DNA of 64,000 bases, from positions 502,712 to 566,711 of the forward strand of contig JBAZYF010000001.1 of assembly GCA_041659505.1 (NCBI GenBank), given 5' to 3'. A model generated the notes under the pieces. The model saw nothing but the letters and a program-made list of their open reading frames with translations, was not told the origin of the DNA and ran no database searches. This document shows positions 6,049-64,000 of the stretch, piece by piece. Position 1 is the first letter of the stretch. Each line of letters starts with the position of its first letter. The translations under genes were made by a program, and so were the position numbers. This DNA is from Parcubacteria group bacterium. Lineage in GTDB: Bacteria > Patescibacteriota > Minisyncoccia > Moranbacterales > UBA2206.

Positions 6049-6303
6049 ATGAGCGAAGGTGTGAAAGGAGGTTTTATGTTTAGGAACATCGAGAAGTTCT
6101 TTGAAAAAAAGCTTAGATGCCGAGCATCTAAGGTGGAGGGGGTGAGCTGCCCCAAATGCAGCTCTTTTAACTTGGAGTTAAAAAGAAGAGAATTTTTAGA
6201 GAGAGGTAGTTACGGAGGAGCAGTTTTTCATTTGGAGTATAAGTGCCTTGATTGCGAAACGGAATTGGAGACTACTCGTGAACTGTTGATGACACTTCGT
6301 TAG
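6049..6303 (+). CDS. zinc-ribbon protein (CPKC...CLDC), hypothetical
   Basis: two CxxC pairs; alternative start at 6076 preceded by AAAGGAGG. Confidence 0.5.
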   Translation: MSEGVKGGFMFRNIEKFFEKKLRCRASKVEGVSCPKCSSFNLELKRREFLERGSYGGAVFHLEYKCLDCETELETTRELLMTLR

Positions 6304-7789: not shown

Positions 7790-7865
7790 AATAGTTAATT
7801 GGACTATTTTTAGTGTAGTTTTATTTTAGCACAAAAATTAATTATGTTCAGATAGTGTTTTCTTT

Positions 7866-8068
7866 GTGTCATTCCCGCGGAGGCGGGAATCCAGGCACCT
7901 CAGGCTTAAAATAAAGATAAAACGAATTATTGAAATTCAAGACTAGCTGAAATTGAGAGCTTGCTGGACTTGTATTTCGATTTTCCAGAGTTGGTAACTA
8001 GTGGAAACTGGATTCCCGCCTTGCTCCACCGCTAAAGCTAAGGCGGCACGCGGTCGCGGGAATGACAC
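7866..8068. mobile_element. MITE-like element family A, copy 1 (203 bp; terminal inverted repeats GTGTCATTCCCGCGGAGGCGGGAATCCAGG)
   Basis: TIRs that each fold into a hairpin themselves; homologous copies at 21479-21670 and 54599-54748. Confidence 0.7.
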
Positions 8069-21478: not shown

Positions 21479-21670
21479 GTGTCATCCCCGCACCCGTTTC
21501 ACGAGCATAAACTCCGGCGGGGATCCAGGCGCCTCAGGTGAAAAATAAAGAGAAAACGAATTATTAAAATTCAAGACTTAATGAAGCAGAACTCTTGCCA
21601 GACTTGCAATTCGGTTTTCCAGGGTTCATAAATTGTGGAACCTGGATTCCCGCCTGCGCGGGAATGACAA
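21479..21670. mobile_element. MITE-like element family A, copy 2
   Basis: same TIRs as 7866-8068 with about 25-bp insertion inside left hairpin; sits between nusA and ppaC. Confidence 0.7.
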
Positions 21671-24086: not shown

Positions 24087-24680
24087 ATGAACAACTTAAC
24101 GAATCAGTATCTTATTCCAACCGTAATCGAAAAGACCAGCCAAGGTGAGAGGGCATATGATATTTATTCACGCCTGCTAAAAGATCGGATAATTTTTTTG
24201 GGTAGTTCGATCGATGACGTGTCGGCTAATATTATCATTGCACAACTTTTGTTTTTGGATTCGCAAAATTCCAAAGAAGATATCAAGCTCTATATCAATT
24301 CTCCCGGCGGATCAGTCACGGCGGCGCTCGCAATTTATGACACGATGCAATTTGTCAAAATTGACGTCTCAACGATCTGTGTGGGAATCGCGGCTAGTGC
24401 GGCGGCGCTGCTGCTCGCTAGTGGTGCGAAAGGAAAAAGGATTGCATTGCCAAACAGCGAAGTGATGATTCATCAAGTGATGGGTGGCGCGCAAGGCCAG
24501 GCGACAGACATCGACATCCACGCGAAACATATTTTGAAAACGAAAGATAAGTTGAATGAAATTTTGGCGACGCATACTGGTCAACCAATTGCCAAAGTGA
24601 CGATTGACGCGGAACGAGATTTTTTCATGAGCGCAACTGAGGCGAAGAAGTATGGAATTGTGGATAAAATCATAAAATAA
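24087..24680 (+). CDS. clpP: ATP-dependent Clp protease proteolytic subunit
   Basis: catalytic '[11 protein letters not shown]' Ser and 'MIHQ' His motifs; ORF track uses TTG at 24075, ATG at 24087 preferred. Confidence 0.9.
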
Positions 24681-24686
24681 AGGAAC

Positions 24687-24849
24687 CCTCCTCGCCCTCC
24701 GGGAGAGGATGTCACGAGCACGTGACAGGTGAGGGTAAGGGTTATACATTAGGAATAATCCAAGCTAGTTTAGTTTTTTCCTAACATTACACCCTTTCCC
24801 TCATCCGGCCTCCGGCCACCTTCTCCCGAAGGGCGAAGGAGATATAAAG
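24687..24849. mobile_element. MITE-like repeat family B, copy 2
   Basis: conserved ends shared with 9047-9208. Confidence 0.65.
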
Positions 24850-24851
24850 AA

Positions 24852-24886
24852 AAACCCTCGAAACTTTAAAAGTTTCGAGGGTTTTT
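24852..24886. terminator. bidirectional intrinsic terminator (CCCTCGAAACTTT..AAGTTTCGAGGG)
   Basis: 12-bp stem flanked by A-run and T-run between clpP-side repeat and gpmI 3' end. Confidence 0.6.
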
Positions 24887-44067: not shown

Positions 44068-45384
44068 TTATGTTACGGCTCCGATAAACATCGGGATGCC
44101 TATACGTTGTCTTTTATTTTCTCCTTTGATCTGGAGTGTTTTTCGCAGAGGCGCATCGCCCCGTTCTTTCTCGTGTTGCAATGCAGAGTTGGCTAGAGAG
44201 CTTACCCCGAGGTGGACCGTGTGTTTTCCAAATTTATCATTGATCTCGTCGATGCTATGGTAGAGCTTTTTCAAGCCCTTAGCACGCAGGACTTCGCAGA
44301 ACAGATCGAGCTGTTTTGTGACATCTTCCTCGAGTTTGAAAAAGGCGATGCCGGTCGCGCGATATGAAAGGCTTTGATCAAATATCTGATCAAAATATTT
44401 TTCCACAACGTTGATGATTTCGCTGGGAATGGCCGTCGGGCGGGAAAATTGAATTTCCATTCCGGCATAGCGGAAGGATTGGAGCTTCAAGAAAAAAGTC
44501 GCATTGCGAGCGCGAAGATTATAGCGGCGTAATTTGATGCAAGCATTTTCAATATTTTTCGCTAACTGGGAAAAAATAAAATCGCGATCATTGGAAGGCG
44601 GAGTAAAAGTTCTCACTTTTTGGACTGAAGTATAGGTTGTTCGGCCAGTCACATCCAGAGGCAGAATAAATTTGCCATTAAGTTCTTGCCAGGTTTCAAT
44701 CGTCGGTTTGGTGAATTTGCGCCTGACCCACTCTTCGTCTTTATGAGCAAATTCCAAAGCGGTATTTATTCTCTCATTTTTCAGGTAAGCACCGGTCTGT
44801 GGTCCGATGCCCCAAACATCTTCTGTTTCTTTTTGAGCGAGAAATTCGTGGATTTGATAGCCAGGAATGACGGTCAGTCCTGAGGGTTTTTTCCATTTGG
44901 AACCGATTTTGGCGATGGTTTTGTTCGGTCCTAGTCCGACTGAAAAAGTAAAGCCTAATTCTCGGTCCAGATCCTGCTTGATTTTTTCGGCAATTTTCGG
45001 GTAAGACATGCGCAAGGGTCGACGCAATCCAGTGATGTCGGCAAAACATTCGTCGATACTATATTCCTCAACTTCACTCGTGTAGCGCCGGACAATCTCA
45101 AAAAAACGCTTAGAAAGCAGGCTGTAGGTTTCATAATCAGACGGAAGGATAATCGCTTCGGGACAGATTTTTTTGATCTCAAAAATTCGCATCCCTCGTC
45201 TGACGCCACGCGCTTTGGCTTCATAGCTTAAGGATGCGGCAATTCCGCGTTCTCGGCCTGTTATCACTGGTTTGCCTTTTAGTGCGGGATCGCGCGATTG
45301 CTCACAGGAGGCAAAAAAAGCATCTCCGTCGATATGGATGATAGCTCGGTTGAAAGAATTGATGCTCAAGGTTTCGTTTGGCAT
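44068..45384 (-). CDS. Y-family (UmuC/DinB-like) error-prone DNA polymerase
   Basis: 'IIHIDGDAFFASCEQ' and 'SIDECFADITG' catalytic motifs. Confidence 0.85.
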   Translation of the reverse strand: MPNETLSINSFNRAIIHIDGDAFFASCEQSRDPALKGKPVITGRERGIAASLSYEAKARGVRRGMRIFEIKKICPEAIILPSDYETYSLLSKRFFEIVRRYTSEVEEYSIDECFADITGLRRPLRMSYPKIAEKIKQDLDRELGFTFSVGLGPNKTIAKIGSKWKKPSGLTVIPGYQIHEFLAQKETEDVWGIGPQTGAYLKNERINTALEFAHKDEEWVRRKFTKPTIETWQELNGKFILPLDVTGRTTYTSVQKVRTFTPPSNDRDFIFSQLAKNIENACIKLRRYNLRARNATFFLKLQSFRYAGMEIQFSRPTAIPSEIINVVEKYFDQIFDQSLSYRATGIAFFKLEEDVTKQLDLFCEVLRAKGLKKLYHSIDEINDKFGKHTVHLGVSSLANSALQHEKERGDAPLRKTLQIKGENKRQRIGIPMFIGAVT

Positions 45385-45388
45385 CAGT

Positions 45389-45955
45389 TTAGTGGTATTT
45401 TCTGATGACGGAAATTACTACCGCAGAAATGATCAGTTCTTCTTTTGGAATGATCGGTTTGTATTTCTTGTTTGCTGGCATCAGAATTGTTTTGCCATTG
45501 AGCTTTTCCAAAAATTTCATCGTCCATTTTCCGTCTACTTCCGCGATGACAATGTCGCCATCTTTGGATGCTTTGCCCCTTTCGACTAAGACAATATCAC
45601 CCGAGCGGATGCCCGCATCAATCATCGAGTCACCGCTGACGTTTAACATATAGGTGGCTTCTTTGTTGGAAATCAGAAATTCATCGATCGTTATCGTATC
45701 AACCAGTTCTTCTTCCGCCGGAGAAGGAAAGCCAGCGGTGATTGAACCCAAAATTTTGGTTTCGCCGAACAGTTTTTTGGGCAGTAATCTGCCTTTCTCA
45801 TCTTTTGAAATCAGCTCAGCTTCGATCATTTTTTTCACCAGGCGGGTAACCGAGTTGATTGATTTGAACTTGCAAAGTCCCATTATTTCTCGATAGCTTG
45901 GCATCCGGCGATATTTTTTGTAGAATGAGAGTAGCTTTTGTTGGTAGTTTTTCAT
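45389..45955 (-). CDS. lexA: LexA repressor (paralog 2), in operon with Y-family polymerase
   Basis: wHTH N-terminus, 'ITAGFPSPAEE' cleavage region, 'VSGDSMIDAGI' Ser and 'KASKDGDIVIAEVDGKWTMK' Lys. Confidence 0.8.
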   Translation of the reverse strand: MKNYQQKLLSFYKKYRRMPSYREIMGLCKFKSINSVTRLVKKMIEAELISKDEKGRLLPKKLFGETKILGSITAGFPSPAEEELVDTITIDEFLISNKEATYMLNVSGDSMIDAGIRSGDIVLVERGKASKDGDIVIAEVDGKWTMKFLEKLNGKTILMPANKKYKPIIPKEELIISAVVISVIRKYH

Positions 45956-45990
45956 AGGGCTGTATTATTTGATGTCTAGCTTTATTATAC

Positions 45991-46006
45991 GTGTACAAAT
46001 GTACAC
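45991..46006. promoter_or_regulatory. candidate LexA operator GTGTAC-AAAT-GTACAC (GTAC-N4-GTAC palindrome)
   Basis: perfect dyad in the 95-bp region between divergent lexA and SRAP genes. Confidence 0.45.
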
Positions 46007-46050
46007 TCGTCAAGTAGGGTGTCCCTAATCATCTAACAGAGCCTAAATAT

Positions 46051-46713
46051 ATGTGTGGAAGATTTTCAATCAGCACTCCTTGGAAAGATTTGGAGGAAAG
46101 ATTTGCGCTAACCATTCCGGAGGGAATTTATAATCCACGCTATAATGCCGCTCCTAGTCAAAAGATGTTAGTTGTTTCGCAGGAAAAACCACACGAAGCG
46201 GAACTTTTTCAATGGGGTTTGATTCCGCACTGGGCCAAAGATACTAAGATTGGGCAAAAGCTGATCAACGCTCGAGCAGAAACAATCACGGAAAAGCCTT
46301 CATTCAAGGAGTCTTTCAAACTTAGGCGCTGTTTTGTGTTGGCAGATGGATTTTATGAGTGGGATAAAAAATCCAACAGTCATATCCCATATCTCATAAT
46401 GCTAAAAGAGGGAGAGCCTTTTGCTTTTGCTGGTATCTATGACTATTGGCGCGATCCATCAGATCGAATGATCCGGTCCTTCTCAATCATAACGACCGAA
46501 GCGAATAGCCTAGTTTCTCGGATCCACGACCGGATGCCCGTGATTCTCACTAGGCAAGAAGAACGAGCGTGGCTTAATCCTGAATTAAAGCTGGATGATG
46601 CTAAACAAATGCTCATTCCTTATCCAGTAGAAGATATGCAAATGTATCAAATATCTACACTAATTAATAGCCCCAGAAATGATAGCGCCGCGGTAGTTGT
46701 TCCGGTCGGTTAA
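46051..46713 (+). CDS. SOS response-associated peptidase (SRAP/YedK, abasic-site processing protein)
   Basis: N-terminal 'MCGRF' catalytic Cys2, 'YNAAPSQ', 'FYEW' motifs. Confidence 0.85.
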   Translation: MCGRFSISTPWKDLEERFALTIPEGIYNPRYNAAPSQKMLVVSQEKPHEAELFQWGLIPHWAKDTKIGQKLINARAETITEKPSFKESFKLRRCFVLADGFYEWDKKSNSHIPYLIMLKEGEPFAFAGIYDYWRDPSDRMIRSFSIITTEANSLVSRIHDRMPVILTRQEERAWLNPELKLDDAKQMLIPYPVEDMQMYQISTLINSPRNDSAAVVVPVG

Positions 46714-54550: not shown

Positions 54551-54598
54551 AATGGTTGTTTTGGCTTAAATTAGGTAAAAATAACTTTGTGTCATTCC

Positions 54599-54748
54599 CG
54601 CGAAGGCGGGAATCCAGGTACCCAAGGCTTTAAAAAGGGAAAAACGGGGGATAGATGGATAAAAAATAGAAGTTAGGGGATTTATAATTCGTTTTTTTGT
54701 AATTTATAACTAGTGGTGCCTGGATCCCCGCCTTCGCGGGGATGACAC
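54599..54748. mobile_element. MITE-like element family A, copy 3 (150 bp, shorter core)
   Basis: TIRs GTGTCATTCCCGCGAAGGCGGGAATCCAGG / CCTGGATCCCCGCCTTCGCGGGGATGACAC. Confidence 0.7.
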
Positions 54749-54891
54749 GTAAAAATCAATTTCCTACCCCCATTATACACCCCAAATAGTAAATTGTCAA
54801 ATATACGTGACAATAGTATAGCCTAAATACGCCAATATAGTTCCTATAATATCAGATATATTGACATTTCCAAAATATCTTTCACAATATA

Positions 54892-54920
54892 TTGACAAAA
54901 CAGTTCAGAGATGCTATACT
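54892..54920 (+). promoter_or_regulatory. strong sigma70-like promoter TTGACA-N17-TATACT at head of cassette-like array
   Basis: consensus -35, near-consensus -10; followed by about 430 nt with no ORF >=60 aa. Confidence 0.5.
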
Positions 54921-55348
54921 ACGCAGTCAAGATAAATCGACAAAGTTTCGAAGACATCTGACAGTAATTTTAAATCTAGAATTGTTATTAGCACTAAGGT
55001 GATTGGCGAGCCCCGCTCAACCCTGGCATGGTAGTCAGATTCAATTGAGAAAGGCAAAGCTAATCGAACCAACCTTGGCGCGATACGTCATCTAGTAACC
55101 CTACAATATCAAACCTTATCCATCGTGATGAGTGGCACAGGCTTAATCCTAAAAGATAGTAAGCTTGTCCAGTCCTTATGATCAGTCCAACTTACTAAAA
55201 TTTTAGGTAAACCGGACTTAACGAGAATTAGAGACTAGGGAAATTATGTTATTTGCCTTGCAAACCGGCACTACGAACGCCGGACATGCGAATAAAAATT
55301 TCCCCTTAATTCAAATCATTATAAAAGATAGTGGTTTGATAGAGTGAA

Positions 55349-55452
55349 GTTCTTTGAAAGAAAAGTAGTATAGTTATCACATTTTTCTCCAGTTAGTTGT
55401 TTCCATTGCGGTTGTCTTTTTTTGAAGGCAATTGCAGTGGGAATAATTAACT
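55349..55452. repeat. cassette boundary module C, copy 1 (core TTTTCTCCAGTTAGTTGTTTCCATTGCGGTTGTCT...GGCAATTGCAGTGG)
   Basis: second copy at 56872-56982, each immediately upstream of a small TM-protein gene. Confidence 0.7.
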
Positions 55453-55502
55453 GAAAACAATCAAAAAATAGCTCTGCGAAAGCGGGGAAGGAGGATGCTA
55501 TA

Positions 55503-55829
55503 ATGAAAAAAATAGTATGTACTGGTCTAAGTTTGTTTTTTCTTTTTTTGTTTGTATATGTCTTCTATACGGTGACAAAAAACACCGTCGAAGACGATGA
55601 AAGCAAAAAAAGTACCCGCTCTTTTTTGTTGGAGCGGGGATACACGAAAGATCTGTTTGAAATGTACGGCCCCCCTAACCGTATATTTCAGATCGATAGC
55701 GACCCAGAGGGTCGCTACGTATATATCTATCAGAAACAAGACGGCACGGGGAGGGCTGCCGTCATAACGGAGGTGAAATTTCTGATAAGGAAGGATGGAA
55801 AGGTTTTGTCAATAACCAATCCATTCTAG
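55503..55829 (+). CDS. small membrane-anchored hypothetical protein (108 aa)
   Basis: GGAAGGAGGA RBS; N-terminal TM. Confidence 0.5.
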   Translation: MKKIVCTGLSLFFLFLFVYVFYTVTKNTVEDDESKKSTRSFLLERGYTKDLFEMYGPPNRIFQIDSDPEGRYVYIYQKQDGTGRAAVITEVKFLIRKDGKVLSITNPF

Positions 55830-55853
55830 AAGAGCAAACAGGAAAATCCAAAC

Positions 55854-56190
55854 AATTGGTTGCCTGAAAATCCACAGGCGGAAAAGCATGGGTAAATCTC
55901 AAATTTCTTTTGTCTAGTTCTTTTTGAAAGAAACTAGATGCCAGTCCAAGTAAGGCCGAACCTTGGAAAATTGTTCTTTTAAGAAAAAACCCGCCCGACG
56001 AAAAGTCTGGCGGAAAAGTTGTAGGGGAAGTTTGTGGAAATCCTAAACGATTTCCACCTCCTCTTTCAGATCTAAACTTAGTTTAGGTTTGAAATGAGGT
56101 GGATGTTCTTTGAAAAAGTTATCAATAATATTTCTGGTTGTCATTTTAGTTTTTGAGAAAATTCAAAGATTGGAGTGGCAATCGGAAAAA
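55854..56190. repeat. module D/E, copy 1 (about 260-bp near-identical structured noncoding repeat + about 45-bp E motif)
   Basis: copy 2 at 57400-57738 near-identical; multiple perfect hairpins (GTGGAAATC..GATTTCCAC; CCGCC..GGCGG; TCTAGTT..AACTAGA). Confidence 0.75.
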
Positions 56191-56330
56191 ACCAGTCTGT
56201 CGAAATTGTAAGTGTGCGATTTTCGAAAAACAGATCGGAAAAGTTTTTTTGGATTTTCGTTGATGTGCCTAGTCAGCGCGGAGAAAGTCCCGGCCACATG
56301 GCGGTCGTAATTCTTCGAAAGGAGAAAGTT

Positions 56331-56723
56331 ATGATAATTATAGTATTTGAGTATGGCAAGAATGGTCAGTATTCCGTAAAACGCACTACTGATGTTTGCG
56401 GTGTACCGGTCCTTGCGGTGTATTGCAGGGGCAATACCCCGCCCGATATGGGAGGGCTGTACCGGTCCGCTTCTGCCGCCATCGATGTCGCCCTTTATAA
56501 TCTTTGCGAGGGCGAAAAACTCGTTCTCGTGGATGGAGCGGATCGGGTTGGATTTGATGTTAAATTCGATCAGGCGGATGTTGCTGTTAACTTTCAGAGA
56601 TTGCGGATTTTCCGTAGCACTGTCACGGGGATGGCGGAGGCCATTGCTGGTCTCTTTCATCTCAGGCGGGAACTCGGCTGGGAATCCGGTCGACCCTGTC
56701 GCGGGGGTAGTTGGGATACGTAG
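56331..56723 (+). CDS. hypothetical protein (130 aa) in GC-rich patch
   Basis: AAAGGAG RBS 7 nt upstream; chosen over overlapping minus-strand ORF 56163..56810. Confidence 0.4.
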   Translation: MIIIVFEYGKNGQYSVKRTTDVCGVPVLAVYCRGNTPPDMGGLYRSASAAIDVALYNLCEGEKLVLVDGADRVGFDVKFDQADVAVNFQRLRIFRSTVTGMAEAIAGLFHLRRELGWESGRPCRGGSWDT

Positions 56724-56750
56724 TGCGACGGTTCCCAATCGCATTAAAAA

Positions 56751-56890
56751 AACCTTGTGCTGGCAAGAATAAAAACCAGCAGATTGTGGGGATTTGGGCA
56801 GCCGCTTCATTGCCGCTACCCAATCTTTCCAAGTTCAGTATTTTTTCAAAAATAGTGAGCTTAGATGAGATTTTTGTTCTTTGGAAGAAA
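56751..56890. repeat. cassette boundary module F, copy 1 (covarying hairpin + conserved tail ...AATCTTTCCAAGTTCAGTATTTTTTCAAAAATAGTGAGCTTAGATGAGATTTTTGTTCTTTG)
   Basis: further copies 58344-58449, 61036-61145, diverged copy 62149-62295. Confidence 0.75.
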
Positions 56891-56982
56891 ATTTATTAAA
56901 GTTAGAGTATTTTTTCTCCCAGTTAGTTGTTTCCATTGCGGTTGTCTATATTTTTAGGCAATTGCAGTGGAAATAATTAACC
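56872..56982. repeat. cassette boundary module C, copy 2
   Basis: see copy 1. Confidence 0.7.
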
Positions 56983-57012
56983 AAAGAACAATTAAATAAA
57001 AAGGATAAAAAA

Positions 57013-57399
57013 ATGAGCTCACTACTAGGCTTAGCGGTGGGGGCATTTCTGGGAGTGGTTGCATCTCTGTGGTATAACCGCACCAGAAAAATGGATATCG
57101 ATCTTCCTTCTGGGAAGATCGAGGTATATTTTAAAAACTATAAAAATGTAGACGGGGAGCGGATGTGGCAAGCATCTGCTTCTCGTGGTGATAAACGGTT
57201 GGGAAGGTCGGTCGTCTTTCCTTCCCTGAAAGAGCTTAGCAAGTTCGTGGCGAAAGCCATTGAGCTCGCAAGGAAAGGCGAGGAAAAGGGATTCAAAGTG
57301 GAAACCCTTTTTCGATGGAATTATGTGGATTTTAGCCGTGAGGGTGAAAAATATCATGGCTATATCCCGACCGGAGAAATCCAAGAACACATCTCATAA
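57013..57399 (+). CDS. small membrane-anchored hypothetical protein (128 aa)
   Basis: N-terminal TM; follows module C2. Confidence 0.45.
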   Translation: MSSLLGLAVGAFLGVVASLWYNRTRKMDIDLPSGKIEVYFKNYKNVDGERMWQASASRGDKRLGRSVVFPSLKELSKFVAKAIELARKGEEKGFKVETLFRWNYVDFSREGEKYHGYIPTGEIQEHIS

Positions 57400-57738
57400 A
57401 TTGAGTTGCCTGAAAATCCACAGGCGGAAAAGCATGGGTAAATCTCAAATTTCTTTTGTCTAGTTCTTTTTGAAAGAAACTAGATGCCAGTCCAAGTAAG
57501 GCCGAACCTTGGAAAATTGTTCTTTTAAGAAAAAACCCGCCCGACGAAAAGTCTGGCGGAAAAGTTGTAGGGGAAGTTTGTGGAAATCCTAAACGATTTC
57601 CACCTCCTCTTTCAGATCTAAACTTAGTTTAGGTTTGAAATGAGGTGGATGTTCTTTGAAAGAAAATTAATATATTATTTTCTGATTGTTATCTTAGTTT
57701 TTGAGAAAATTCAAAGATTGGGATGGCAATCAGAAAAA
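57400..57738. repeat. module D/E, copy 2
   Basis: see copy 1. Confidence 0.75.
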
Positions 57739-57778
57739 CAATACAGGAACGTTGAAAAAATAAAAGGGAGAAAATGAA

Positions 57779-57952
57779 ATGCCGAATAAGAATGAGCATT
57801 TTGATCCGGAGGTAGAAAAACTCTACCAGATGTTTAAAAAGCGTCTGATGGAGGAATTATTTGTACTGTCTCCACATTTGCCAACTCTGGCAAATCTTGT
57901 GGACAAATCGGATTATCTTAAACCTATGCCCGGCGGGAAAGACCGGGGATAA
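57779..57952 (+). CDS. small hypothetical protein (57 aa), not in ORF track
   Basis: AAGGGAG RBS; follows module E2; stop 8 nt before next gene's ATG. Confidence 0.4.
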   Translation: MPNKNEHFDPEVEKLYQMFKKRLMEELFVLSPHLPTLANLVDKSDYLKPMPGGKDRG

Positions 57953-57960
57953 AGGAGGAC

Positions 57961-58197
57961 ATGATGGACGAGTTTTACAAATTGGTTAGCCTGTCTGGAT
58001 CAACCGACGTTTCCTTTCAGGAAATGTCGGATGATGGGCCAGGGGCTCCGACCAGGTATGGTCGGAAAGTGTTTGGTCGGTTCGTAAGGGTGTCAGCAAT
58101 GACACCAGGGAGATGTTGTATTACATCTCCCGTAGTCCTCCTCGCGGATGACGTTTACAACCGGCTTCACGAGTCCGGTTGCAAAACAAACGACTAA
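57961..58197 (+). CDS. small hypothetical protein (78 aa), GC-rich
   Basis: AAAGGAGGA RBS. Confidence 0.45.
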   Translation: MMDEFYKLVSLSGSTDVSFQEMSDDGPGAPTRYGRKVFGRFVRVSAMTPGRCCITSPVVLLADDVYNRLHESGCKTND

Positions 58198-58343
58198 TCC
58201 CGGTTGGCTACACAAAAAATCTCCCTCCGGAGTTTTGACCACCTCAGCAAGTCAAGTAAAAGAAAACTGAGGAGAGTAGTCACCTGACTCTAAAAATATA
58301 TCGTGGTGAGCCCAGCGGAAGCAGAGCCGCAAGTTTGTTCTTT

Positions 58344-58449
58344 ATGTGGGGTTTGGGCAGAATACTAAAAAATCTGCCCAATCTTTCCAAGTTCAGTATT
58401 TTTTCAAAAATAGTGAGCTTAGATGAGATTTTTGTTCTTTGAAAAAAAA
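58344..58449. repeat. cassette boundary module F, copy 2
   Basis: hairpin TGGGCAGA..TCTGCCCA + conserved tail. Confidence 0.75.
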
Positions 58450-58571
58450 GTAAATAAGTTTTCTATTAATTCTTGGTCAATATTTTGTGTGGCAAGTTTT
58501 TTGCTAGATGAAATATTGGCCAGGAGACGTAAAAATAAACTTGAATTCAAGGTTAGCATTAGGAGGTTTCT

Positions 58572-59513
58572 ATGAATAGTTTCAGAGAAGTCCTCTTTGG
58601 TAAAGTTGACCTTGATTCAATGGCGACGGCTTTGGTTTTGGGGATTTCTCCTGAAGATCAAAACCTACGCTCAGTTTCGGGGTCGGCTTCAGCCGAAGAG
58701 TTGAAGGACAGTGATGTCCTTTGTCTCGAGGTCGGAGGCACTGGTCGGACGACGGAAAATTGTTTTGATCATCATCCTTGTGGTGGTGAGAGAAAGATTG
58801 ATCTGTCGGCTGCCGCGCAGGCCTTGGAGCGGATGGCACGCCTTATCCACTATGTGGACGAGGTGGACCGAGGCATTCGGCATGACTGCGAGTGCCGATT
58901 TCCCTCTCTTGTTTCTCTCGTTTCTGGAATGAAATTAATTGTGAAAGAACCGGAAGAGCAAATGAGAAAGGGATTGCAGTTGATGCGGACGGTGCTGCAG
59001 TCGGGATTGGATCCATATGATTGTATGGAAAAAATTACGATTTGGATGCCGGAAGCATCCGAGTGGATTGAAGCAAAACGCCAACACGAACGGCATTTTG
59101 CAGAAGCTACTCAAAACGCCATGTGGTTTCAGACGATTACCGGGATTAAAGTAGTTGCCGTGGAAACGACATGGATTGGTGCGCCCGGGGCATTGTATGG
59201 CCTGGGGGCACATGTAGTAATCGTACTCAACCCCACGTTCGAGCAGGGCGGAAAAGTGTATCGCAAATACACAATCGCTGTGCATCGCGATTTGGGGATT
59301 AATCTGTCTTCGGCTATTTCCGAACTTAGATTGCTCGAGGATGGTTGGGGCGGACCAGCGCACGCCACGATATGCGGCTCTCCACAGGGTGTGGATAGTC
59401 AGCTATCAATGCAAACGGTGGCCGATGTGGTCACGAAAAGTTTGCAGGGCGTGAAACTAGTCAACAAAAAAGAAAGAAAGGAGGAAGAAGAATTGCTCAG
59501 GAAAGCAGCGTAG
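58572..59513 (+). CDS. divergent DHH-like protein, paralog 1 (GWGG..GSPQG family)
   Basis: AGGAGG RBS; 'CFDHHPCGGE'; C-terminal 'LLEDGWGGPAHATICGSPQGV'; about 52% GC. Confidence 0.5.
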   Translation: MNSFREVLFGKVDLDSMATALVLGISPEDQNLRSVSGSASAEELKDSDVLCLEVGGTGRTTENCFDHHPCGGERKIDLSAAAQALERMARLIHYVDEVDRGIRHDCECRFPSLVSLVSGMKLIVKEPEEQMRKGLQLMRTVLQSGLDPYDCMEKITIWMPEASEWIEAKRQHERHFAEATQNAMWFQTITGIKVVAVETTWIGAPGALYGLGAHVVIVLNPTFEQGGKVYRKYTIAVHRDLGINLSSAISELRLLEDGWGGPAHATICGSPQGVDSQLSMQTVADVVTKSLQGVKLVNKKERKEEEELLRKAA

Positions 59514-59745
59514 AAAATTTTCTCCAGCTTGAAATCGAGTAGCTAAAAATGGCGAAAGAAATTGAGTTTTGCGTCCCGGGTTAAAACTCCGCCTGGGTAA
59601 TTGAAACACGCCAATGTTGGTGGCCCAAAGGGGCAGTTGATTTCAAATCAATTTGTTTTTGATTATTTTTCACCGCAAAGTGCGGTCAAAAAACGCAACA
59701 CCTCCCATTTTCCAGGCGGAGCGCCTGGGGGGTGGGGAGAAAACC

Positions 59746-60957
59746 ATGAAATATCAGTTTGCAATTTTAGACCCCCGTCCGATTGAGGCCGCGCAAATGG
59801 CCAATAATGCAGTTTTTTCTTCGGGACGTGGGGCATTGGGAGTTGAGGTCACCGTTCCGGCTTTAGCAGCTCGGTGCAAACTGGGGAATATCGATCCCCA
59901 GCATACCGGACAGGATGATAGTTTGGCGGCCATCGAGGTCGCACTGCAGCATGTCGTCGATGTCCGTGGCGAATGCTGCGGGCATGAGCAGGAAGTTTTC
60001 TCGGATTGTGTGGAGTGTTCGCAGCCGGTGTATGAGCCGGTTGTGACGCTGGCCACTATTCGCGCCGACCTGGATTCGGTCGGGGCGATGGCTGTTCTGC
60101 TCATTCGGGCGGAATGTGAGCAGAATGATTGGGACACGTGTAATAGCGTGCCTGGGTATGGCGAGATAATACAGGAGGCGAAGGATCGGATCCGGCTTGT
60201 GGCCGAGTCTGACAAATTTGCCAGAGGCGGCTGGCCCGGTCCACGGCCGTTGCCGACGGAAGAGTCACTTTTTGACGACTCGTCCGCCTCGACCGAGTCG
60301 GACTCACGGTTGGCTCCGATGGCCGCCGCGGTTTCCGACTTCAAAATCCCGCTGGCTCAGCGGGTTGAGTGGATGAAGCGATGGCTCCTTTGGGGCGAGG
60401 AGCCGGCCGGCTACCGTGAAAAGTGGCTGGTTGAAAGAAAGGCGATCGCGCAAGCGGTTGCCAGCGGTTTCATCAAGGCTTCGGTCGCGAAGCTTTGTGG
60501 GTACTGCGGATATTACGCTGGCGTAAGTCACGTCGGCGAACTGTGCTCGCACTGCTACTGCGACGGAGGACTTGAAGTCCAGTCGATCGCGGCAGTGGTT
60601 TCCACGCACCGCGCGGCAACCAGCATCGGCTACTCATTAGCGCCGATTGTGGTGGCGCTCAATCCGGAGTTTCGGTTTGGCGGGGGTGAACCTTGTCGAA
60701 AGTTCACGGTCTGCCAGTTTACGGCAGAGTACATGGATTTACGGGCGGTGCTCGCTGAGCTTGCCGGGCTCGAGTCGGGCTGGGGAGGATCGCCAACAAT
60801 TGGCGGATCGCCCCAGGGTGTGAGCTCCATCTTGACGATTGATCAAGTCGTCGAGGTGGTGGCAAAACACCTCATCAAAAAATGTTTTTTCTGCGGAAGC
60901 TTTTTGGAAAAGCCGTACAAGGTTTGCTTTTCCTGCGGTGGAGCGCAGCCGGAATAA
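59746..60957 (+). CDS. divergent DHH-like protein, paralog 2, with C-terminal CxxC..CxxC zinc ribbon
   Basis: GGGGAGA RBS; C-terminal 'LESGWGGSPTIGGSPQGV'; about 55% GC; start set to ATG 59746 (track uses TTG 59653). Confidence 0.5.
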   Translation: MKYQFAILDPRPIEAAQMANNAVFSSGRGALGVEVTVPALAARCKLGNIDPQHTGQDDSLAAIEVALQHVVDVRGECCGHEQEVFSDCVECSQPVYEPVVTLATIRADLDSVGAMAVLLIRAECEQNDWDTCNSVPGYGEIIQEAKDRIRLVAESDKFARGGWPGPRPLPTEESLFDDSSASTESDSRLAPMAAAVSDFKIPLAQRVEWMKRWLLWGEEPAGYREKWLVERKAIAQAVASGFIKASVAKLCGYCGYYAGVSHVGELCSHCYCDGGLEVQSIAAVVSTHRAATSIGYSLAPIVVALNPEFRFGGGEPCRKFTVCQFTAEYMDLRAVLAELAGLESGWGGSPTIGGSPQGVSSILTIDQVVEVVAKHLIKKCFFCGSFLEKPYKVCFSCGGAQPE

Positions 60958-61035
60958 ATTTCTTTCGGAAAAATAGTTCTTTAACCTCTCCCAAGTCAAG
61001 GTGCGCTTGGGCATAAGAGGAAAATAGCACCAAAG

Positions 61036-61145
61036 TTGTAGGATTTTCGGGCAGTCACTTTGTTGCCGCTGCCCGATCTTTCCAAGTTCAGTATTTTTTC
61101 AAAAATAGTGGGCTTAGATGAGATTTTTGTTCTTTGAAAAAAAAT
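61036..61145. repeat. cassette boundary module F, copy 3
   Basis: hairpin CGGGCAG..CTGCCCG + conserved tail. Confidence 0.75.
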
Positions 61146-61279
61146 GAAAACCAACTATTTTTCATTGTCTTATTTGAGATAATAATTTTTTTGTTGTTTC
61201 TGATGAGGCAATGGAATAGTTGTTTTTTAATCTGCCGAACCGAAAAACGGGGAGGCAAAAATAAAAAAGGAGTACGAAA

Positions 61280-62113
61280 ATGAAAAAACAGTTATTTGTT
61301 TTGGGTGGCAATGACGGTGAGATGCAGGCAATAAAAGGTTTGTTAACTGCATTCGGGCATGCCTGGGCGCAGCCCCAGATTGGCTGGGGCGAACATTTTT
61401 ATGTGCCTGCCGAATTGGGACTGGAGATTATTGATGTCCAGATTCCTGTCGGCGATAATGGTCACGGCACAGTGTATCGTGCTGGAAAGACTTGCCAGGG
61501 AATCGATGAAGTGATATTTGTCGAATGCTCCCCAAAGGATTTTCCGGCTGATCAGGCTGTGATGGTTATCGATCATCATAATGATCGGTCGGGCGAGCCG
61601 GCTGCCATCCGGCAGATGGTTGAAAAACTGAACATTTGGTCCAGGCTTAGTTCGCTGACCCAGCGATGGGTCGAGCTGGTGGCCGCCAATGACTCCGGGT
61701 ATATCCCGGCGATGCTGGCGCTTGGTGCTACGAGTAAGGAGATTGCCCGAGTACGCTTGTCCGACCGCAACGCTCAGGGCATTACGTCTGAGCAAGAAGT
61801 GGAAGCCGAGAGAGCAGTCGTGGGGGCCGAGGTTGTTGGAAAGTTGACCATCGTAAGGATGGCACATTCCAAGACAGCAACGGTCGCCGACAGACTTTTC
61901 GGCAAAGCCGACCAGCTCCTCATCCTCTCTGGCGACGGAGAGGTGAATTTCTTTGGGAACGGGGCGATCTGCTCCGAGCTTAAGGCAAAATTTGAGGGCT
62001 GGGGCGGCGGTTCCGGCTTTGGCAAGTCGGATGGCATTGGCTACTGGGGTGGTTGCCCGAACTTTGACGAAGTGTTGAGCTTCGTCAAGAGCAAGGTTAA
62101 TCCCTCTGAGTAA
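61280..62113 (+). CDS. divergent DHH-like protein, paralog 3
   Basis: AAAAGGAG RBS; 'FVLGGNDGEMQAIKGL' (motif I-like), 'VMVIDHHNDRSGE', C-terminal 'FEGWGGGSGFG'. Confidence 0.5.
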   Translation: MKKQLFVLGGNDGEMQAIKGLLTAFGHAWAQPQIGWGEHFYVPAELGLEIIDVQIPVGDNGHGTVYRAGKTCQGIDEVIFVECSPKDFPADQAVMVIDHHNDRSGEPAAIRQMVEKLNIWSRLSSLTQRWVELVAANDSGYIPAMLALGATSKEIARVRLSDRNAQGITSEQEVEAERAVVGAEVVGKLTIVRMAHSKTATVADRLFGKADQLLILSGDGEVNFFGNGAICSELKAKFEGWGGGSGFGKSDGIGYWGGCPNFDEVLSFVKSKVNPSE

Positions 62114-62148
62114 GGACGGCTACCCAATGCCCAAGCATGAAACACTAA

Positions 62149-62295
62149 CCTTGTGCTGGCAAGAATAAAAACCAGCAGATTGTAGGGGATTCGGGATTTG
62201 AGTATTGCCGTAGGGGCAAGAAAAAAATCCCGATTCTCTCCGGTACTATTTTTCTTTTGAAAAAGTAGTTCTGGATGAGGATGAGGTTCTTTGAC
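62149..62295. repeat. cassette boundary module F, diverged copy 4
   Basis: TGCTGG..CCAGCA hairpin + TCGGGATTT..AAATCCCGA hairpin + degenerate tail ending GTTCTTTGAC. Confidence 0.6.
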
Positions 62296-62420
62296 ATCAG
62301 AATTATTATAATCCGGGCAATCCTTGCCCATTTTGCTCTGGCTTAACCGTCAGAGAAGTGCCAACGAGGCGCCTGCAAGCGAAAGGAAAGGAAGTTAGAG
62401 TTTGCAGATGAGGAGTGATA

Positions 62421-64000
62421 ATGCCAAATTTTATATGGACCGACCATGCGGACAGGGAATCTCTTCCGATTGACGCGCATCTCGCTGAGATTTTGCGTCT
62501 CACGGAAGAAAATCAGGTAATCATTGTGGAAGCGGAAACGGGCGCAGGAAAAACGACTCGGATCCCGCAGATGCTTCTGCAGGAAACGAGTCTGCCAATT
62601 CAAATGACTCAACCTCGCCGTCCGGTTGTTCGCTGGATGGCGAAAAGAATCGCCTATGAACTGAAAGATGTTCCGGGCGGTGTTGTCGGCTGGAAACTGT
62701 TTGGAGATGATCCGGTTGTGTCAAAACGGACTCGGTGTCTTTTGAAAATCGAGCAATCTTTGGCAAACTGGATCCGGCGGAAAAATCGTCTGCCGGAGGG
62801 GATTATTATTGTGGACGAGGCGCACGAGCGTCACGTTACAACCGATACCCTTTTGATTCTTCTTAAAAAACTTTTACTGGGATCGCCAAAAACGAAGGTG
62901 ATTATTACATCCGCCACGATTGATACAGAGAGATTTTCAAAGTATTTTTGGAATGCTCCGATATTAAAAATCAGCGGTCGTTGTTATCCAGTAGAAGTTC
63001 GTCCCTATCATATGGGGAGAGGGGAGCACCACAGCCAAGGCGCAATTTGCGCCGCTGAAAAAGTAGTGGACAATTTTTTGAGGCAATGTCTCCATATTCA
63101 GGACACGCACAATGAATTTTCAAGTGTGCTTGTCGAGCGTGGAACGGTTCTGGCGTTTTTTCCTGGCGAGGAGGATATCAATTCCGCTATTTCTTCTCTC
63201 GAGCGTCATTTGCATTGGCGCAAAGAAAGGGATGAGAATCTTTCTGTTGAGGTCATCACTCTTGCGAGTGAAGCCAAAAACAAAAAAGAGGGCGGAAAAG
63301 ATGCGGAAAATATTGATGCAAAATATCGCATCGAAATTTTTCCTTGTCACGGAAAACTGACACCGGCAGAACAGGATCGCAGTCAGGGACCGGACGTTGC
63401 GCCAAATACCTTGCGCGTTATCTGCACAACAGATATCGCGCGAACAAGCGCGACATTTCCCCGAGTGGTCGGGGTTATTGATTCTTTGCAAATCAAACGG
63501 CCCTTCTCTGATTACAAAGGCGTGGCTCATTTGGACAAAATCCAGGTGAGCATGGCTGAAGCGAATCAGGCCAAAGGTCGAGCAGGTCGGACGCAACCAG
63601 GATTCTACATTCCCATTTCTTTTGAAGGGGAATATGGAAGGCTGGCAATGTGGCCAGTGCCGGCGATTTTACGGGAGCCGTTGAGCTCAATCGTGTTGCA
63701 GTTTAGCGCGGCAGGAATTAGTCCGCGCGATTGTGACTATATCGATGCACCGGATCAGCAAAAGATTGATGCGACCATCAAACGGTTGCAAAAATTGGGT
63801 GCGCTGGATTCCTATGAGCAAATCACCGAAGTTGGTGAATTGCTCGTCCAGTTTCCGATTGATCCAGAAAGGGCGAAAGCTTTGATCACTGGATCGAAAT
63901 TGGGCATTTTGCCTGAGACAATAATTGCGTCGGCGTGCATTGAGCATGAGGGATTATTTTGGATCCCCAAAACTGACGCGAAAATTGAAGTCGAGCGGTG
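62421..64000 (+). CDS. ATP-dependent DEAH-box helicase (HrpA/HrpB-like), 5' partial within window (runs off end); absent from ORF track
   Basis: GAGGAG RBS; 'ETGAGKTT' (Walker A), 'VDEAHER' (motif II), 'SATID', 'QAKGRAGR' motifs; no stop through position 64000. Confidence 0.85.
   Translation, partial: MPNFIWTDHADRESLPIDAHLAEILRLTEENQVIIVEAETGAGKTTRIPQMLLQETSLPIQMTQPRRPVVRWMAKRIAYELKDVPGGVVGWKLFGDDPVVSKRTRCLLKIEQSLANWIRRKNRLPEGIIIVDEAHERHVTTDTLLILLKKLLLGSPKTKVIITSATIDTERFSKYFWNAPILKISGRCYPVEVRPYHMGRGEHHSQGAICAAEKVVDNFLRQCLHIQDTHNEFSSVLVERGTVLAFFPGEEDINSAISSLERHLHWRKERDENLSVEVITLASEAKNKKEGGKDAENIDAKYRIEIFPCHGKLTPAEQDRSQGPDVAPNTLRVICTTDIARTSATFPRVVGVIDSLQIKRPFSDYKGVAHLDKIQVSMAEANQAKGRAGRTQPGFYIPISFEGEYGRLAMWPVPAILREPLSSIVLQFSAAGISPRDCDYIDAPDQQKIDATIKRLQKLGALDSYEQITEVGELLVQFPIDPERAKALITGSKLGILPETIIASACIEHEGLFWIPKTDAKIEVER

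Follow-up and report, generated by a model that had tools for sequence, protein, structure and literature searches.

The 64-kb window analysed here, a term by which we mean the whole stretch of DNA, belongs to a 656-kb contig of a metagenome-assembled genome (MAG) from the Parcubacteria group of the Candidate Phyla Radiation (CPR). Between 55.3 and 62.3 kb it contains an array of genes in which every intergenic spacer except one carries a module of the same four-part construction, and selection acts on these modules as RNA structures of the sense strand. They are locus-specific and have been conserved in related genomes, while the small open reading frames (ORFs) between them differ between strains, with the junctions located at the modules. 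An earlier note on this DNA had offered two explanations for such an arrangement, namely integron- or shufflon-like recombination sites, or RNA processing or terminator structures reused around mobile cargo, and it is the second that the evidence favours. We propose that the region is one operon whose RNA modules serve intercistronic processing, stability and translation and at the same time provide the homology for gene shuffling, a reading to which we give an even chance. Judged by its sequence, the locus is not an integron but appears to be a set of repeated regulatory cassettes that double as recombination substrates.

A four-part module recurs in the intergenic spacers

When the seven spacers were aligned on a shared motif and then folded, the same elements appeared in the same order. 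The first, hp1, is a GC-rich hairpin of variable sequence. It is followed by hp2, a longer hairpin with a conserved base that is pyrimidine-rich on its 5' side and purine-rich on its 3' side (UCC...AGA-GAG), and by the motif proper, an invariant G-TTC-TTT-(GAAA) that lies in a U/A-rich single-stranded linker. The fourth element, hp3, is an uninterrupted helix of 24-30 bp, situated about 8-35 nt past the motif and clear in five of the seven spacers. On the 3' side of hp3 there is an A-rich stretch, then a good Shine-Dalgarno (SD) sequence and then the ORF. With at most one mismatch, the motif GTTCTTTGAAA occurs ten times in the window compared with 4.9 ± 1.9 expected occurrences, and seven of the ten lie inside the array, all on the plus strand and all intergenic. 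The shorter string GTTCTTT behaves in the same way: 13 of its 22 plus-strand matches in the window fall in the 7.5 kb of the array, again all intergenic and on the plus strand.

The repeats C, D/E and F that the earlier note had described lie at the places given there, and they do not represent a chance pattern. Repeat D (55859-56115 and 57405-57661) is 100% identical over 257 nt although the flanking coding sequences are unrelated, repeat E (56131-56190 and 57679-57738) is 90% identical and repeat C (55382-55451 and 56912-56981) 89%. The tail of F is present at 56793-56892, 58351-58450 and 61046-61145 with pairwise identities of 78-90%, and a diverged fourth F copy was recognised by a 48-nt match of 92% (62147-62194 versus 56751-56798). 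No further copy of any of the four families was found elsewhere in the 64-kb window. In terms of the module, repeats C and E are hp3 elements, a third hp3 type lies at 58471-58525, and D holds two extra, degenerate units of a hairpin plus GTTCTTT. Several pairings of upstream halves (type 1, D and F) with downstream halves (C, E and others) are seen, and the motif is always the point at which one changes to the other. There are two tandem units, each about 1.53-1.56 kb long, that have all of their non-coding parts in common. Outside the window, a scan of metagenome contigs with the F tail retrieved the same organism only. A 20-nt F pattern gave seven single chance matches in unrelated phyla when genome contigs of species representatives, a set that does not include the source MAG, were scanned, and a relaxed pattern yielded single chance matches only in viral contigs.

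The modules are RNA structures under selection

The module hairpins fold with z-scores of -3 to -6. The arms of hp1 change between copies but stay paired (TTGGG/CCCAA versus TCGGG/CCCGA). The claim that the hairpin arms of module F differ yet remain complementary is thus borne out as far as folding and hp1 pairing are concerned, but the first of the arm pairs then quoted, TGGGCAG/CTACCCA, has one mismatch. The hp3 helices are strand-asymmetric. All five contain 5-8 G·U pairs, and predicted folding energies are -30 to -42 kcal/mol for the sense strand versus -5 to -16.5 kcal/mol for the antisense strand; the antisense fold is weaker by 15-26 kcal/mol owing to these G·U pairs, of which there are up to eight per helix. 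Between E and its second copy, E', all five paired positions that differ stay paired, four through one-sided changes (G·U to A-U or G-C) and one through a double change. The C helix is near-invariant in three copies, one of which comes from a strain with an adjacent coding sequence of only 76% identity.

For hp2, nine copies from four genomes were aligned, and 500 shuffles as well as slid registers served as controls. The inner helix shows two-sided changes in seven of nine pairs, and 87.7% of the alignment cells are paired, whereas the slid registers reach at most 56%. The covariation score of 0.448 compares with 0.307 in the shuffles, none of which attained the observed value. A C·A opposition six pairs from the base of hp2 is replaced by U·G, an isosteric wobble, in the related strain L139. 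Being rich in G·U pairs and specific for the sense strand, the helices act as RNA. This asymmetry, together with the changes that preserve pairing, excludes DNA cruciforms, the ends of miniature inverted-repeat transposable elements (MITEs) and antisense transcripts as the selected entity.

The same data bear on the view that the modules are functionless, selfish or neutral intergenic repeats comparable to MITEs or repetitive extragenic palindromic (REP) elements, or leftovers of a tandem duplication. The tandem units mentioned above would fit such a view, as would the true MITE family next door (54575-54745). We nevertheless hold it to be highly improbable: the compensatory changes and the G·U asymmetry indicate selection on RNA structure, the non-coding parts are more conserved than the coding parts, and terminal inverted repeats or target-site duplications are absent. 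In addition, and unlike MITE or REP elements, the helices are strand-asymmetric and all copies are confined to one locus, where they lie on the plus strand in one fixed orientation and order relative to the genes.

A covariance model, R1, was built from hp2 and the motif, leaving D-type and IG0-type copies outside the seed. It finds seven copies in the window, all on the plus strand and all between 55.3 and 62.3 kb, and no copy in the other 56 kb of the window or in unrelated CPR loci. The non-seed D-type and IG0-type copies are retrieved at E = 0.01-0.06. Searches of the window and the related loci against Rfam returned nothing but tRNAs at the gathering score, and a permissive E-value search of the array and of the related loci L136-L138 added only generic long-hairpin (miRNA-precursor) models.

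The sole spacer without a module, IG5 (59514-59745, plus strand), lacks hp1, hp2 and motif and contains a separate conserved structured RNA in the gap between the genes for a 313-aa and a 403-aa protein. It is a multi-helix RNA of about 235 nt with 74 predicted pairs, 12 of which show compensatory changes among four sequences, one per genome. The equivalents in the related loci (L136 10955-11176, L137 9203-9456 and L141 2121-2361) are more conserved than the coding sequence. No Rfam family matches IG5. Its closing helix pairs bases just past the stop codon of the 313-aa gene with the SD sequence (GGGGAG) of the next gene, which suggests translational coupling or a riboswitch-like control of the downstream gene. 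Altogether, structured RNA takes up roughly 3.5 kb of the 7.5 kb examined.

Layout of modules and cargo genes

Starting at 54.9 kb, all genes in the remainder of the window and in a further 5 kb covered by contig L001 are encoded on the plus strand, and the same holds for each of the modules and helices described in the following. Module 1 (55297-55359) comprises an hp2 of type 1 and the motif GTTCTTTGAAA at 55349-55359, with hp1 at 55265-55283; model R1 places it at 55298-55361 (E = 0.064), a copy that is absent from the seed. The type C hp3 (55390-55451) in the 5' untranslated region (UTR) of the first cargo ORF, A108, is a 30-bp uninterrupted helix with eight G·U pairs and energies of -41.9 (sense) versus -15.7 kcal/mol (antisense); it is kept in the second copy, C', and in strain L139. 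A108 itself (55503-55829) encodes a small protein with a hydrophobic N-terminus and has no family match in Pfam, NCBIfam, PHROGs or PADLOC. Module D (55854-56115) begins with 5' hairpins and degenerate GTTCTTT copies at 55917 and 55973 and continues with hp1 (56034-56057), hp2 (56058-56102) and the motif (56105-56115). R1 recognises it at 56058-56117 (E = 0.024), and its 5' part and motif are conserved in L137, L140 and L149. The type E hp3 (56131-56188) is a 26-bp helix with eight G·U pairs and energies of -30.1 in sense versus -5.1 kcal/mol in antisense orientation.

The next cargo ORF, B130 (56331-56723, 52% GC), is a near-orphan with five matches among 1.84 billion representatives. Module F1 (56751-56886; R1 73 bits) contains an auxiliary hairpin, hp1 (56795-56822), hp2 (56823-56871) and the motif (56876-56886); hp3 of type C' (56922-56978) leads to the cargo ORF C128 (57013-57399). 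C128 is unrelated to A108 and likewise near-orphan, as only three matching proteins, one of them the query itself, exist in 5.8 billion. Modules D' and E' (57400-57738) have their motif at 57651-57661 and hp3 at 57678-57737. They precede two cargo ORFs (57779-58197) of 57 aa (57779-57952) and 78 aa (57961-58197). An SD-proximal hairpin, CCCGGCGGGAAAGACCGGGG, resides inside the 3' end of the 57-aa ORF (57930-57949) and raises the question whether that ORF is real. Hairpins of the form CCCGGCGGG(A/T)(A/C)AGACCGGG are found directly 5' of the SD sequence not only at this position in the window but also, before unrelated ORFs, in L137 (about 6268-6290) and L138 (about 5947-5970 and 8727-8750).

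Module F2 (58351-58444; R1 73.3 bits), with hp1, hp2 and the motif at 58434-58444, is combined with the third hp3 type (58471-58525), a helix of 24 bp with five G·U pairs (-30.7 versus -12.7 kcal/mol for sense and antisense), and precedes the first gene of a conserved core. This gene encodes the 313-aa protein (58572-59513) and is followed by IG5 and the gene for the 403-aa protein (59746-60957). Module F3 (61046-61139; R1 73.9 bits), again with hp1, hp2 and a motif at 61129-61139, stands before the gene for a 277-aa protein (61280-62113). The diverged module F4 (62147-62296; R1 46.5 bits), with the motif variant GTTCTTTGACA at 62286-62296, precedes the gene for an HrpA-like DEAH/HA2 helicase of 1464 aa (62421-64000), which continues beyond the end of the window.

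Related loci keep the modules and differ in cargo

Related loci were reached via close homologs of the 313-aa protein (76-80% identity) in L136, L137/L138 and L141. Units of the form hp1-hp2-GTTC(T/A)TT-hp3 exist in these loci and also in L139/L140 and L149. L137/L138 are syntenic with the window and share a large protein, a TrmB regulator, a TTGACA-N17-TATACT promoter, a long leader, small ORFs and the 313-aa homolog; hp1-hp2 units, GTTCTTT(G)ACA motifs and long G·U-rich hp3 helices are all present. L136 has three module copies with the motif ATGTTCATTA(C/A)AA, one of them with a 60-nt apical insertion in hp2, and in L141 the motif GTTCTTTACA is located 50 nt before the 313-aa homolog. Non-coding parts are better conserved than coding parts, whether copies are compared inside one genome or across genomes. 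Two further non-coding blocks have an identity above or equal to that of the neighbouring coding sequence: 60980-61033 matches L136 12094-12146 with 91% over 54 nt and contains a CCCAAG...CTTGGG hairpin, and L136 9607-9798 matches L137 6550-6739 with 75% over 190 nt. We also noted that GUUCAA recurs in hp1 loops of L136 (9755-9780, 12163-12190 and 14285-14313) and L137 (6692-6720 and 7987-8020) and resembles the linker GUUC(U/A)UU. One factor might recognise two single-stranded GUUC sites per module, but the window copies do not show GUUCAA loops clearly.

The cargo, by contrast, varies among relatives that co-occur with this strain. L149/L150 are 84% identical to 54755-55495 of the window, a segment that includes promoter, leader, module 1 and hp3-C and stops in the 5'UTR, 8 nt short of the A108 start codon. 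From there on, a C128 homolog occupies the slot of A108, and D/E and then a different gene of at least 157 aa follow. Compared with L149, the window has an extra block, A108-D-E-B130-F1, between the direct repeats C and C', which is what integration or deletion by homologous recombination at the C module would produce. In L139/L140 the 78-aa homolog is followed by an F module whose hp1 is that of F2, by the motif and by hp3-C plus an IG0-like spacer; next come a C128 homolog of 65% identity and D, and the switch in best match is located at the motif. In the more distant relatives L136 and L137, parts of the UTRs are retained, and the small ORFs 5' of the 313-aa ortholog are dissimilar to those of the window, the only exception being a distant C128 homolog at another position in L136. 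A 66-nt stretch of the B130 5'UTR (56272-56337) is 79% identical to L137 6793-6858, which precedes an unrelated ORF of 86 aa. In L136 the order of the 313-aa gene with IG5, the 277-aa gene and the helicase gene is kept, while the intervening 310-aa gene shows no detectable similarity to the 403-aa protein. The gain and loss of cassettes at the modules that a comparison of relatives was meant to reveal is seen in two cases, the replacement of A108 by a C128 homolog in L149 and the 78-aa gene that precedes C128 in L139. The earlier picture of conserved boundaries around variable, foreign cargo stands with regard to boundaries and variation (L149, L139, L136 and L137), but "foreign" was overstated for the large genes, since the 277-aa and 313-aa genes belong to families spread over CPR phyla.

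In principle, such exchange could be the work of a site-specific recombinase as in integrons or shufflons, in which case GTTCTTTGAAA would be where crossover takes place and the hairpins would be recombination sites in folded form. Mosaic junctions do lie at the motif: there are four different downstream halves behind F-type upstream halves and two different upstream halves in front of C-type downstream halves, and the cargo varies between strains. However, not a single RYYYAAC...GTTRRRY pair is present on either strand of 54750-62420, where 1.4 would be expected by chance, and GTTCTTT, the reading of all seven motifs, does not conform to GTTRRRY. The motif is outside the hairpins and not in a stem. 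Tyrosine or serine recombinases are encoded neither by the eight ORFs upstream (about 10 kb) nor by the ORFs of the array nor within about 8 kb downstream. The large genes are conserved CPR genes in conserved order, and the A108/C128 swap, in which both UTRs are in common, cannot be explained by exchange at the motif. Considering also the G·U-rich sense-strand helices, the integron- or shufflon-like sites of the earlier note are not supported, and we regard this explanation as barely credible. It is true that the array resembles integron attC sites and clusters of attC sites lacking integron-integrases (CALINs) in its co-directional, small, unrelated ORFs and in imperfect palindromes whose sequence varies while the structure is kept. 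On the other hand, the R''/R' core sites that end each attC palindrome of 57-141 bp are lacking, as is IntI, sequence is conserved outside the stem, and each spacer has a long 5'UTR with its own SD sequence and G·U-rich sense-strand helices. The distance from motif to ATG, 117-215 nt including a 24-30-bp helix, contrasts with the very short 5' spacers of integron cassettes, the ORFs of which mostly have no promoter.

The reading that we prefer would manage without a dedicated recombinase. With lengths of 60-340 nt and identities of 80-100%, the modules could act as portable homology for RecA-type recombination including gene conversion, by which ORFs would be inserted, deleted and swapped. Such a process would account for the 100% identical D copies.

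One strong promoter and a -35-like motif

The consensus promoter TTGACA-N17-TATACT that the earlier note had placed at 54892-54920 (plus strand) was confirmed. With 11/12 matching positions and a TG extension (TTGACA-N17-TGcTATACT), it is the best plus-strand site of the region and the only strong sigma-70-type site of the array; no other reaches 10/12. The same promoter precedes the array in L137 (about 4878) and L149 (about 907). Between promoter and module 1 lies a structured non-coding leader RNA of about 375 nt (54921-55296, plus strand), which contains no plus-strand ORF of 40 aa or more, folds with z = -6.05 relative to shuffles, is 84% conserved in strain L149 and has no match in Rfam. 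It shows no homology to the long leaders of L136, L137 and L141. Those three leaders have only a box of about 50 nt in common (GGAAGGAGAGAGCC). Inside the array, the best promoter matches in the spacers amount to 8-9/12, which equals background, whereas operon-leading promoters in the window reach 10-12/12, and no canonical terminator was found there. That the region forms one operon transcribed from the 54892 promoter is part of our joint estimate and carries the same even weight.

The principal competitor of this scheme is a set of terminator/promoter units, in which hp1/hp2 and the U-rich GUUCUUU would stop transcription, TTGAAA or TTGACA would serve as the -35 element for the next gene, each cargo gene would be its own unit and the repeats would mediate shuffling. 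We consider it rather unlikely, although it has several points in its favour. All seven window copies of the motif end in a -35-like hexamer (TTGAAA, TTGACA or TTTACA). Candidate -10 elements can be assigned in F3 (TTGAAA-16-TATTTT), F1 (TTGGAA-16-TAGAGT) and F2 (TTGAAA-19-TATTAA), and also in L137 at 8141 (TTGACA-18-TAGAAT) and in L141 (TTTACA-17-TATTAA, about 25 nt before the SD sequence). Moreover, an hp2 homolog in L137 is followed by a plain T-run, and a canonical terminator is found directly before another GTTCTTTACA. There is also a precedent, the promoter-early stem-loops (PeSLs) of T4-type phages, for which promoter and terminator activity was experimentally shown (PMC2839356, PMC4122927). 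Against such units stand the background-level promoter scores of the spacers and the -10 element, which is poor or misplaced in most copies and acceptable only in L137 8141 and L141: in F4, TATAAT follows only 10 nt after TTGACA, and the L136 motif at 12265 is separated from the ATG by just 45 nt and lacks a usable -10. The conserved GTTC is outside the -35 hexamer. In E, E', F2 and L138, hp3 begins 8-26 nt past the motif, such that a start about 30 nt further on would fall inside the conserved RNA helix. A transcript containing hp3 must therefore start upstream of the motif. As an aside, the idea that hp2 conceals a promoter for which the motif would be +1 was discarded, because the best candidate, read by eye, scored only 6/12.

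A mini-ORF at the motif and a hammerhead-like element

In 10 of 11 module types an ATG, TTG or GTG is located 1-4 codons upstream of, and in frame with, TTC TTT, compared with a background of 19.7% in the window. The resulting mini-ORFs start with MFFE.., MKFFE.., MRFFD.., MQFF-stop or MFI.., and the purine-rich 3' strand of hp2 (GAGGUGG, AGAGGA or GGGUG) lies 3-5 nt before their start codon, in the place of an SD sequence. The mini-ORF before the 313-aa gene ends in an ATGA overlap with the start codon of that gene both here and in L137, two independent cases.

These findings raise the possibility of a regulatory leader mini-ORF (M-F-F...), whose translation or stalling would remodel hp2 and hp3 and lead to attenuation or coupling, possibly by sensing Phe-tRNA or ribosome stalling, with the hairpins as the expression platform. 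Apart from the association of start codon and TTC TTT and the SD-like strand, it is consistent with this idea that the mini-ORFs run into hp3, that in three cases (D', F2 and L137 8141) their end abuts or overlaps the main start codon, and that the operon encodes an HrpA-like helicase, the E. coli counterpart of which acts on collided ribosomes (PMC11419001) and in daa mRNA processing (PMC3868530). Leader-peptide attenuators and arrest peptides such as pheL, ermCL, SecM and DaaP likewise have a short upstream ORF with tandem Phe codons between alternative hairpins. We nonetheless judge the leader mini-ORF to be unlikely. The length of the peptides (4-47 aa) and their sequence after FF are not conserved, and although E and E' are 90% identical, the D-E and D'-E' peptides (17 and 42 aa) diverge right after MFFE. 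The copy with the hammerhead-like element described below has no start codon, and the SD-like spacing is short (3-4 nt). In contrast to known attenuators, the arrangement is repeated seven times per operon, only M-(x)-F-F is conserved, no terminator follows, and the nucleotide conservation goes beyond what the peptide would need.

A further clue comes from L137. Its D-type module keeps the 5' hairpins and GTTCTTTACA, but the slot between them, where hp1 and hp2 would be, reads UCGGGAUGCGUGUCCCGA-CUGAUGAG-CUCAAAAGAG-CGAAAC. This segment (L137 7310-7357) matches the type III hammerhead ribozyme (Hammerhead_3, Rfam RF00008) with a perfect core, 27.5 bits and E = 5.6e-4 in a local search of 300 nt, where the gathering score is 48.5. 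As in the hammerhead, CUGAUGAG, stem II and CGAAAC are combined with stems I and III; stems I and II align well, and visual inspection allows a stem III of 4 bp and a GUU cleavage triplet to be added. The candidate is identical in L138, at about 2862-2909 by offset. If active, it would cut the polycistronic RNA exactly at the proposed processing site, and its occurrence in the hp1-hp2 slot provides the best indirect support for a processing function. The window has no hammerhead match in Rfam even at E <= 10; a GAUGAG...GAAA sequence in it was rejected as a hammerhead core, as stem II is absent and the leading CU is wrong or missing.

The replacement of hp1-hp2 by a hammerhead-like sequence at the same place of a homologous module also invites the thought that hp1-hp2-GUUCUUU is a new self-cleaving ribozyme or another protein-independent processing element, interchangeable with the hammerhead of the relative. 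The conserved nucleotides in the internal loop (UCC/AGA, with the switch from C·A to U·G) and in the adjoining single strand would be in line with catalysis, as would the lack of an Rfam family match, and it is a possibility that hp1-hp2 itself is catalytic. We find this very doubtful, since the apical part of hp2 tolerates a 60-nt insertion, hp1 is freely variable, the geometry of the internal loop differs between F and D/IG0 types, and no pseudoknot or junction typical of small ribozymes was identified. Very doubtful, too, is the broader proposition that hp1-hp2-GUUCUUU is an undescribed processing element, perhaps a new ribozyme class, which together with hp3 bounds a recombinase-independent cassette system of the CPR.

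Intercistronic processing as the preferred reading

We take the motif to be a putative cleavage or binding site in the only single-stranded stretch between stable helices, with the mini-ORF as a likely component and a -35 element as the main rival. Cutting of the primary transcript would take place in the GUUCUUU stretch that separates hp2 from hp3. The agent could be an endoribonuclease of the host, or else cleavage could depend on ribosomes at the mini-ORF, whose translation may couple to processing. Upstream fragments would be capped at their 3' end by hp1/hp2, while downstream fragments would start with the 5' helix hp3, which would protect or regulate the new 5' end, and stability and translation could thereby be set individually for each cistron. 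Cleavage, effects on stability, translation of the mini-ORF and the recombination pathway are thus steps that we infer.

Several observations weigh against this reading. TTC TTT shows no synonymous variation and the preceding G is conserved even outside start codons, pointing to a constraint on nucleotides and not on the peptide, which also counts against the leader mini-ORF. With this G in place, about 24% of cases are expected to show an immediately preceding start codon according to an estimate from base composition that was not computed by a tool, which makes the mini-ORF statistic less strong than it seems. The score of the hammerhead match does not reach the Rfam gathering score, and the match occurs in one genome only. 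The motif contains a good -35 element (TTGAAA or TTGACA), and with a credible -10 element 17-18 nt further on in L141 and L137, part of the copies may function as promoters. In the A108/C128 swap, the IG0-type 5'UTR is retained as far as the SD sequence, for which a crossover in the C module alone is insufficient as an explanation, and the compared strains may differ by more events than a simple recombination scheme implies.

Core genes and chromosomal setting

The core of the locus consists of three DHH-type phosphoesterases, one NrN-like and one, the 403-aa protein, predicted as such, together with the HrpA-like RNA helicase. The 277-aa, 313-aa and 128-aa proteins are 100% identical to the NCBI entries WC848_02605, WC848_02595 and WC848_02585, respectively. 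Matches of the 277-aa protein to the PDB structure 9lq9, "NrN" (E = 1.4e-21), and to the PADLOC model DHH_CorA (1.3e-31), with more than 325 homologs across CPR, identify it as an NrN-type DHH phosphoesterase. NrN degrades SAM-AMP in type III CRISPR systems (PMC10600005); CRISPR genes were not seen at the locus. The family profile of the 313-aa protein, which has its homologs across CPR phyla, finds no PDB relatives by sequence. Its structural model (pLDDT 87) matches PAP phosphatase, PF0399, PPX1 and RecJ with a Foldseek probability of 1.0, and a DHH/DHHA1 fold is accordingly predicted. The 403-aa protein is inferred to be DHH-type because it has its C-terminal domain in common with the 313-aa protein (41% over 99 aa). 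The "DHH-like paralogs" of the earlier note are hence detectably related in the case of the 313-aa and 403-aa proteins, while the 277-aa protein is a separate, NrN-type protein. A core that would deal with RNA and nucleotides fits an RNA-regulated operon but proves nothing.

The NrN-like DHH family as a whole occurs in many CPR phyla without conserved genomic context (window 61280-62113, L003 4089-5206 and L006 4756-5087). In L003 the gene is found beside a tyrosine recombinase, a tRNA gene and type IV secretion pilins, in L006 beside two tRNA genes, and the family may travel on integrative elements. In two other CPR contigs, L003 (5330-5468) and L004 (5790-5922), the NrN-like gene is preceded by a canonical TTGACA-N17-TATAAT promoter and a leader of about 130 nt, structured and conserved, with the sequence GTTTTCCCGCTATTT...GCGGGAAAACCGTGAGCCACTTCGGTGGTAATTCA.AATCCGAGCTATCCGCACCGTCACGCGGGATAGGCTCAATGGAGGATGTCATG. 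The leader has no match in Rfam and is a riboswitch or leader candidate.

Upstream of the array there are ordinary chromosomal genes, among them those for a Y-family polymerase, a LexA-like S24 peptidase, an SRAP protein and a divergent TrmB regulator. The first three form a compact SOS-type cluster (44068-46713) about 8 kb upstream of the array. The MITE between TrmB and the array promoter (54575-54745) has terminal inverted repeats (GTGTCATTCCCGCGAAGGCGGGAATCCAGG...) and further copies at 7862-7921 and 21496-21555. At the same spot L149 has, at 593-765, a member of another repeat family of the window (9031-9212 and 24671-24852). With different small elements at one spot in the two genomes, the site between TrmB and the array promoter appears to be a hotspot for small mobile elements. 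None of the array ORFs matches PHROGs, and there is thus no hint of a prophage.

Five independent assemblies contain contigs of the same strain, and all of these match the window with 100% identity; the junctions are confirmed and breaks occur only inside the D repeat. Look-ups of the exact A108, C128 and 277-aa proteins in same-strain contigs revealed no alternative junctions. The GC content of the window is 40.8% and not about 37% as previously stated for the genome; the GC-rich ORFs of the array, put at about 50-55% before, indeed stand out with 50-57%. The GC content at third codon positions (GC3) reaches 0.63 in the array versus 0.23-0.54 elsewhere in the window; the genes for the 403-aa protein (57% GC, GC3 0.63) and the 277-aa protein (GC3 0.60) exceed all other genes of the window. 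Diversity-generating retroelements, repeats of type III toxin-antitoxin systems, CRISPR and tRNA-like punctuation were dropped as candidates, as neither a reverse transcriptase nor A-specific mismatches nor short tandem repeats were present and ARAGORN gave no tRNA-like match in the array region.

Comparison with known systems and implications

The nearest documented counterpart of the array is the PeSL system. PeSLs are composite motifs of a stem-loop and a strong sigma-70 promoter (-35, -10 and AT-rich upstream element) that flank orphan ORFs in T4-type phages and mediate modular shuffling through homologous recombination, with excised mini-circles as a further hallmark (Arbiol, Comeau & Krisch 2010, PMC2839356; Comeau et al. 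2014, PMC4122927). The array resembles them in that composite motifs of about 100 nt, which include a stem-loop and a -35-like element, are repeated between small and mostly orphan ORFs in a hyperplastic region, and in that close genomes differ by insertion, deletion or replacement of ORFs at the motifs, as expected for homologous recombination without a recombinase. Conserved composite motifs flanking orphan ORFs, with relatives that differ by such events at the motifs, are indeed what we found. The host, however, is a CPR chromosome and not a phage. In contrast to PeSLs, the modules are up to 340 nt long, have two to three covarying helices and an invariant GUUCUUU with the start of a mini-ORF, and lack a convincing -10 element, and their promoter function is doubtful.

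A second parallel is offered by the intercistronic RNase III sites in the early operon of phage T7 and by operon elements for selective RNA processing and stabilisation. There, too, related hairpins recur between the cistrons of one polycistronic transcript, and long, near-perfect helices are flanked by single-stranded linkers. The outcome in those systems, individual mRNAs with protective terminal hairpins, is the one that we propose for the array. The array differs from them in its triple-hairpin spacers, the invariant linker and the swappable cargo.

CPR bacteria have tiny genomes and are uncultivated, and to our knowledge almost nothing is known of their gene regulation. The locus described here indicates that conserved structured RNA can make up a considerable part of a gene cluster in these bacteria; it comprises at least three RNA motifs that are absent from Rfam, i.e., the hp2/GUUCUUU module, the hp3 helices and IG5. 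It would also represent a chromosomal case of recombinase-free exchange of small genes via regulatory RNA modules, a process described until now for T4-type phages. Since the products of its core are related to RNA and nucleotides, the operon may be regulated by the same kind of RNA transactions that these products perform.

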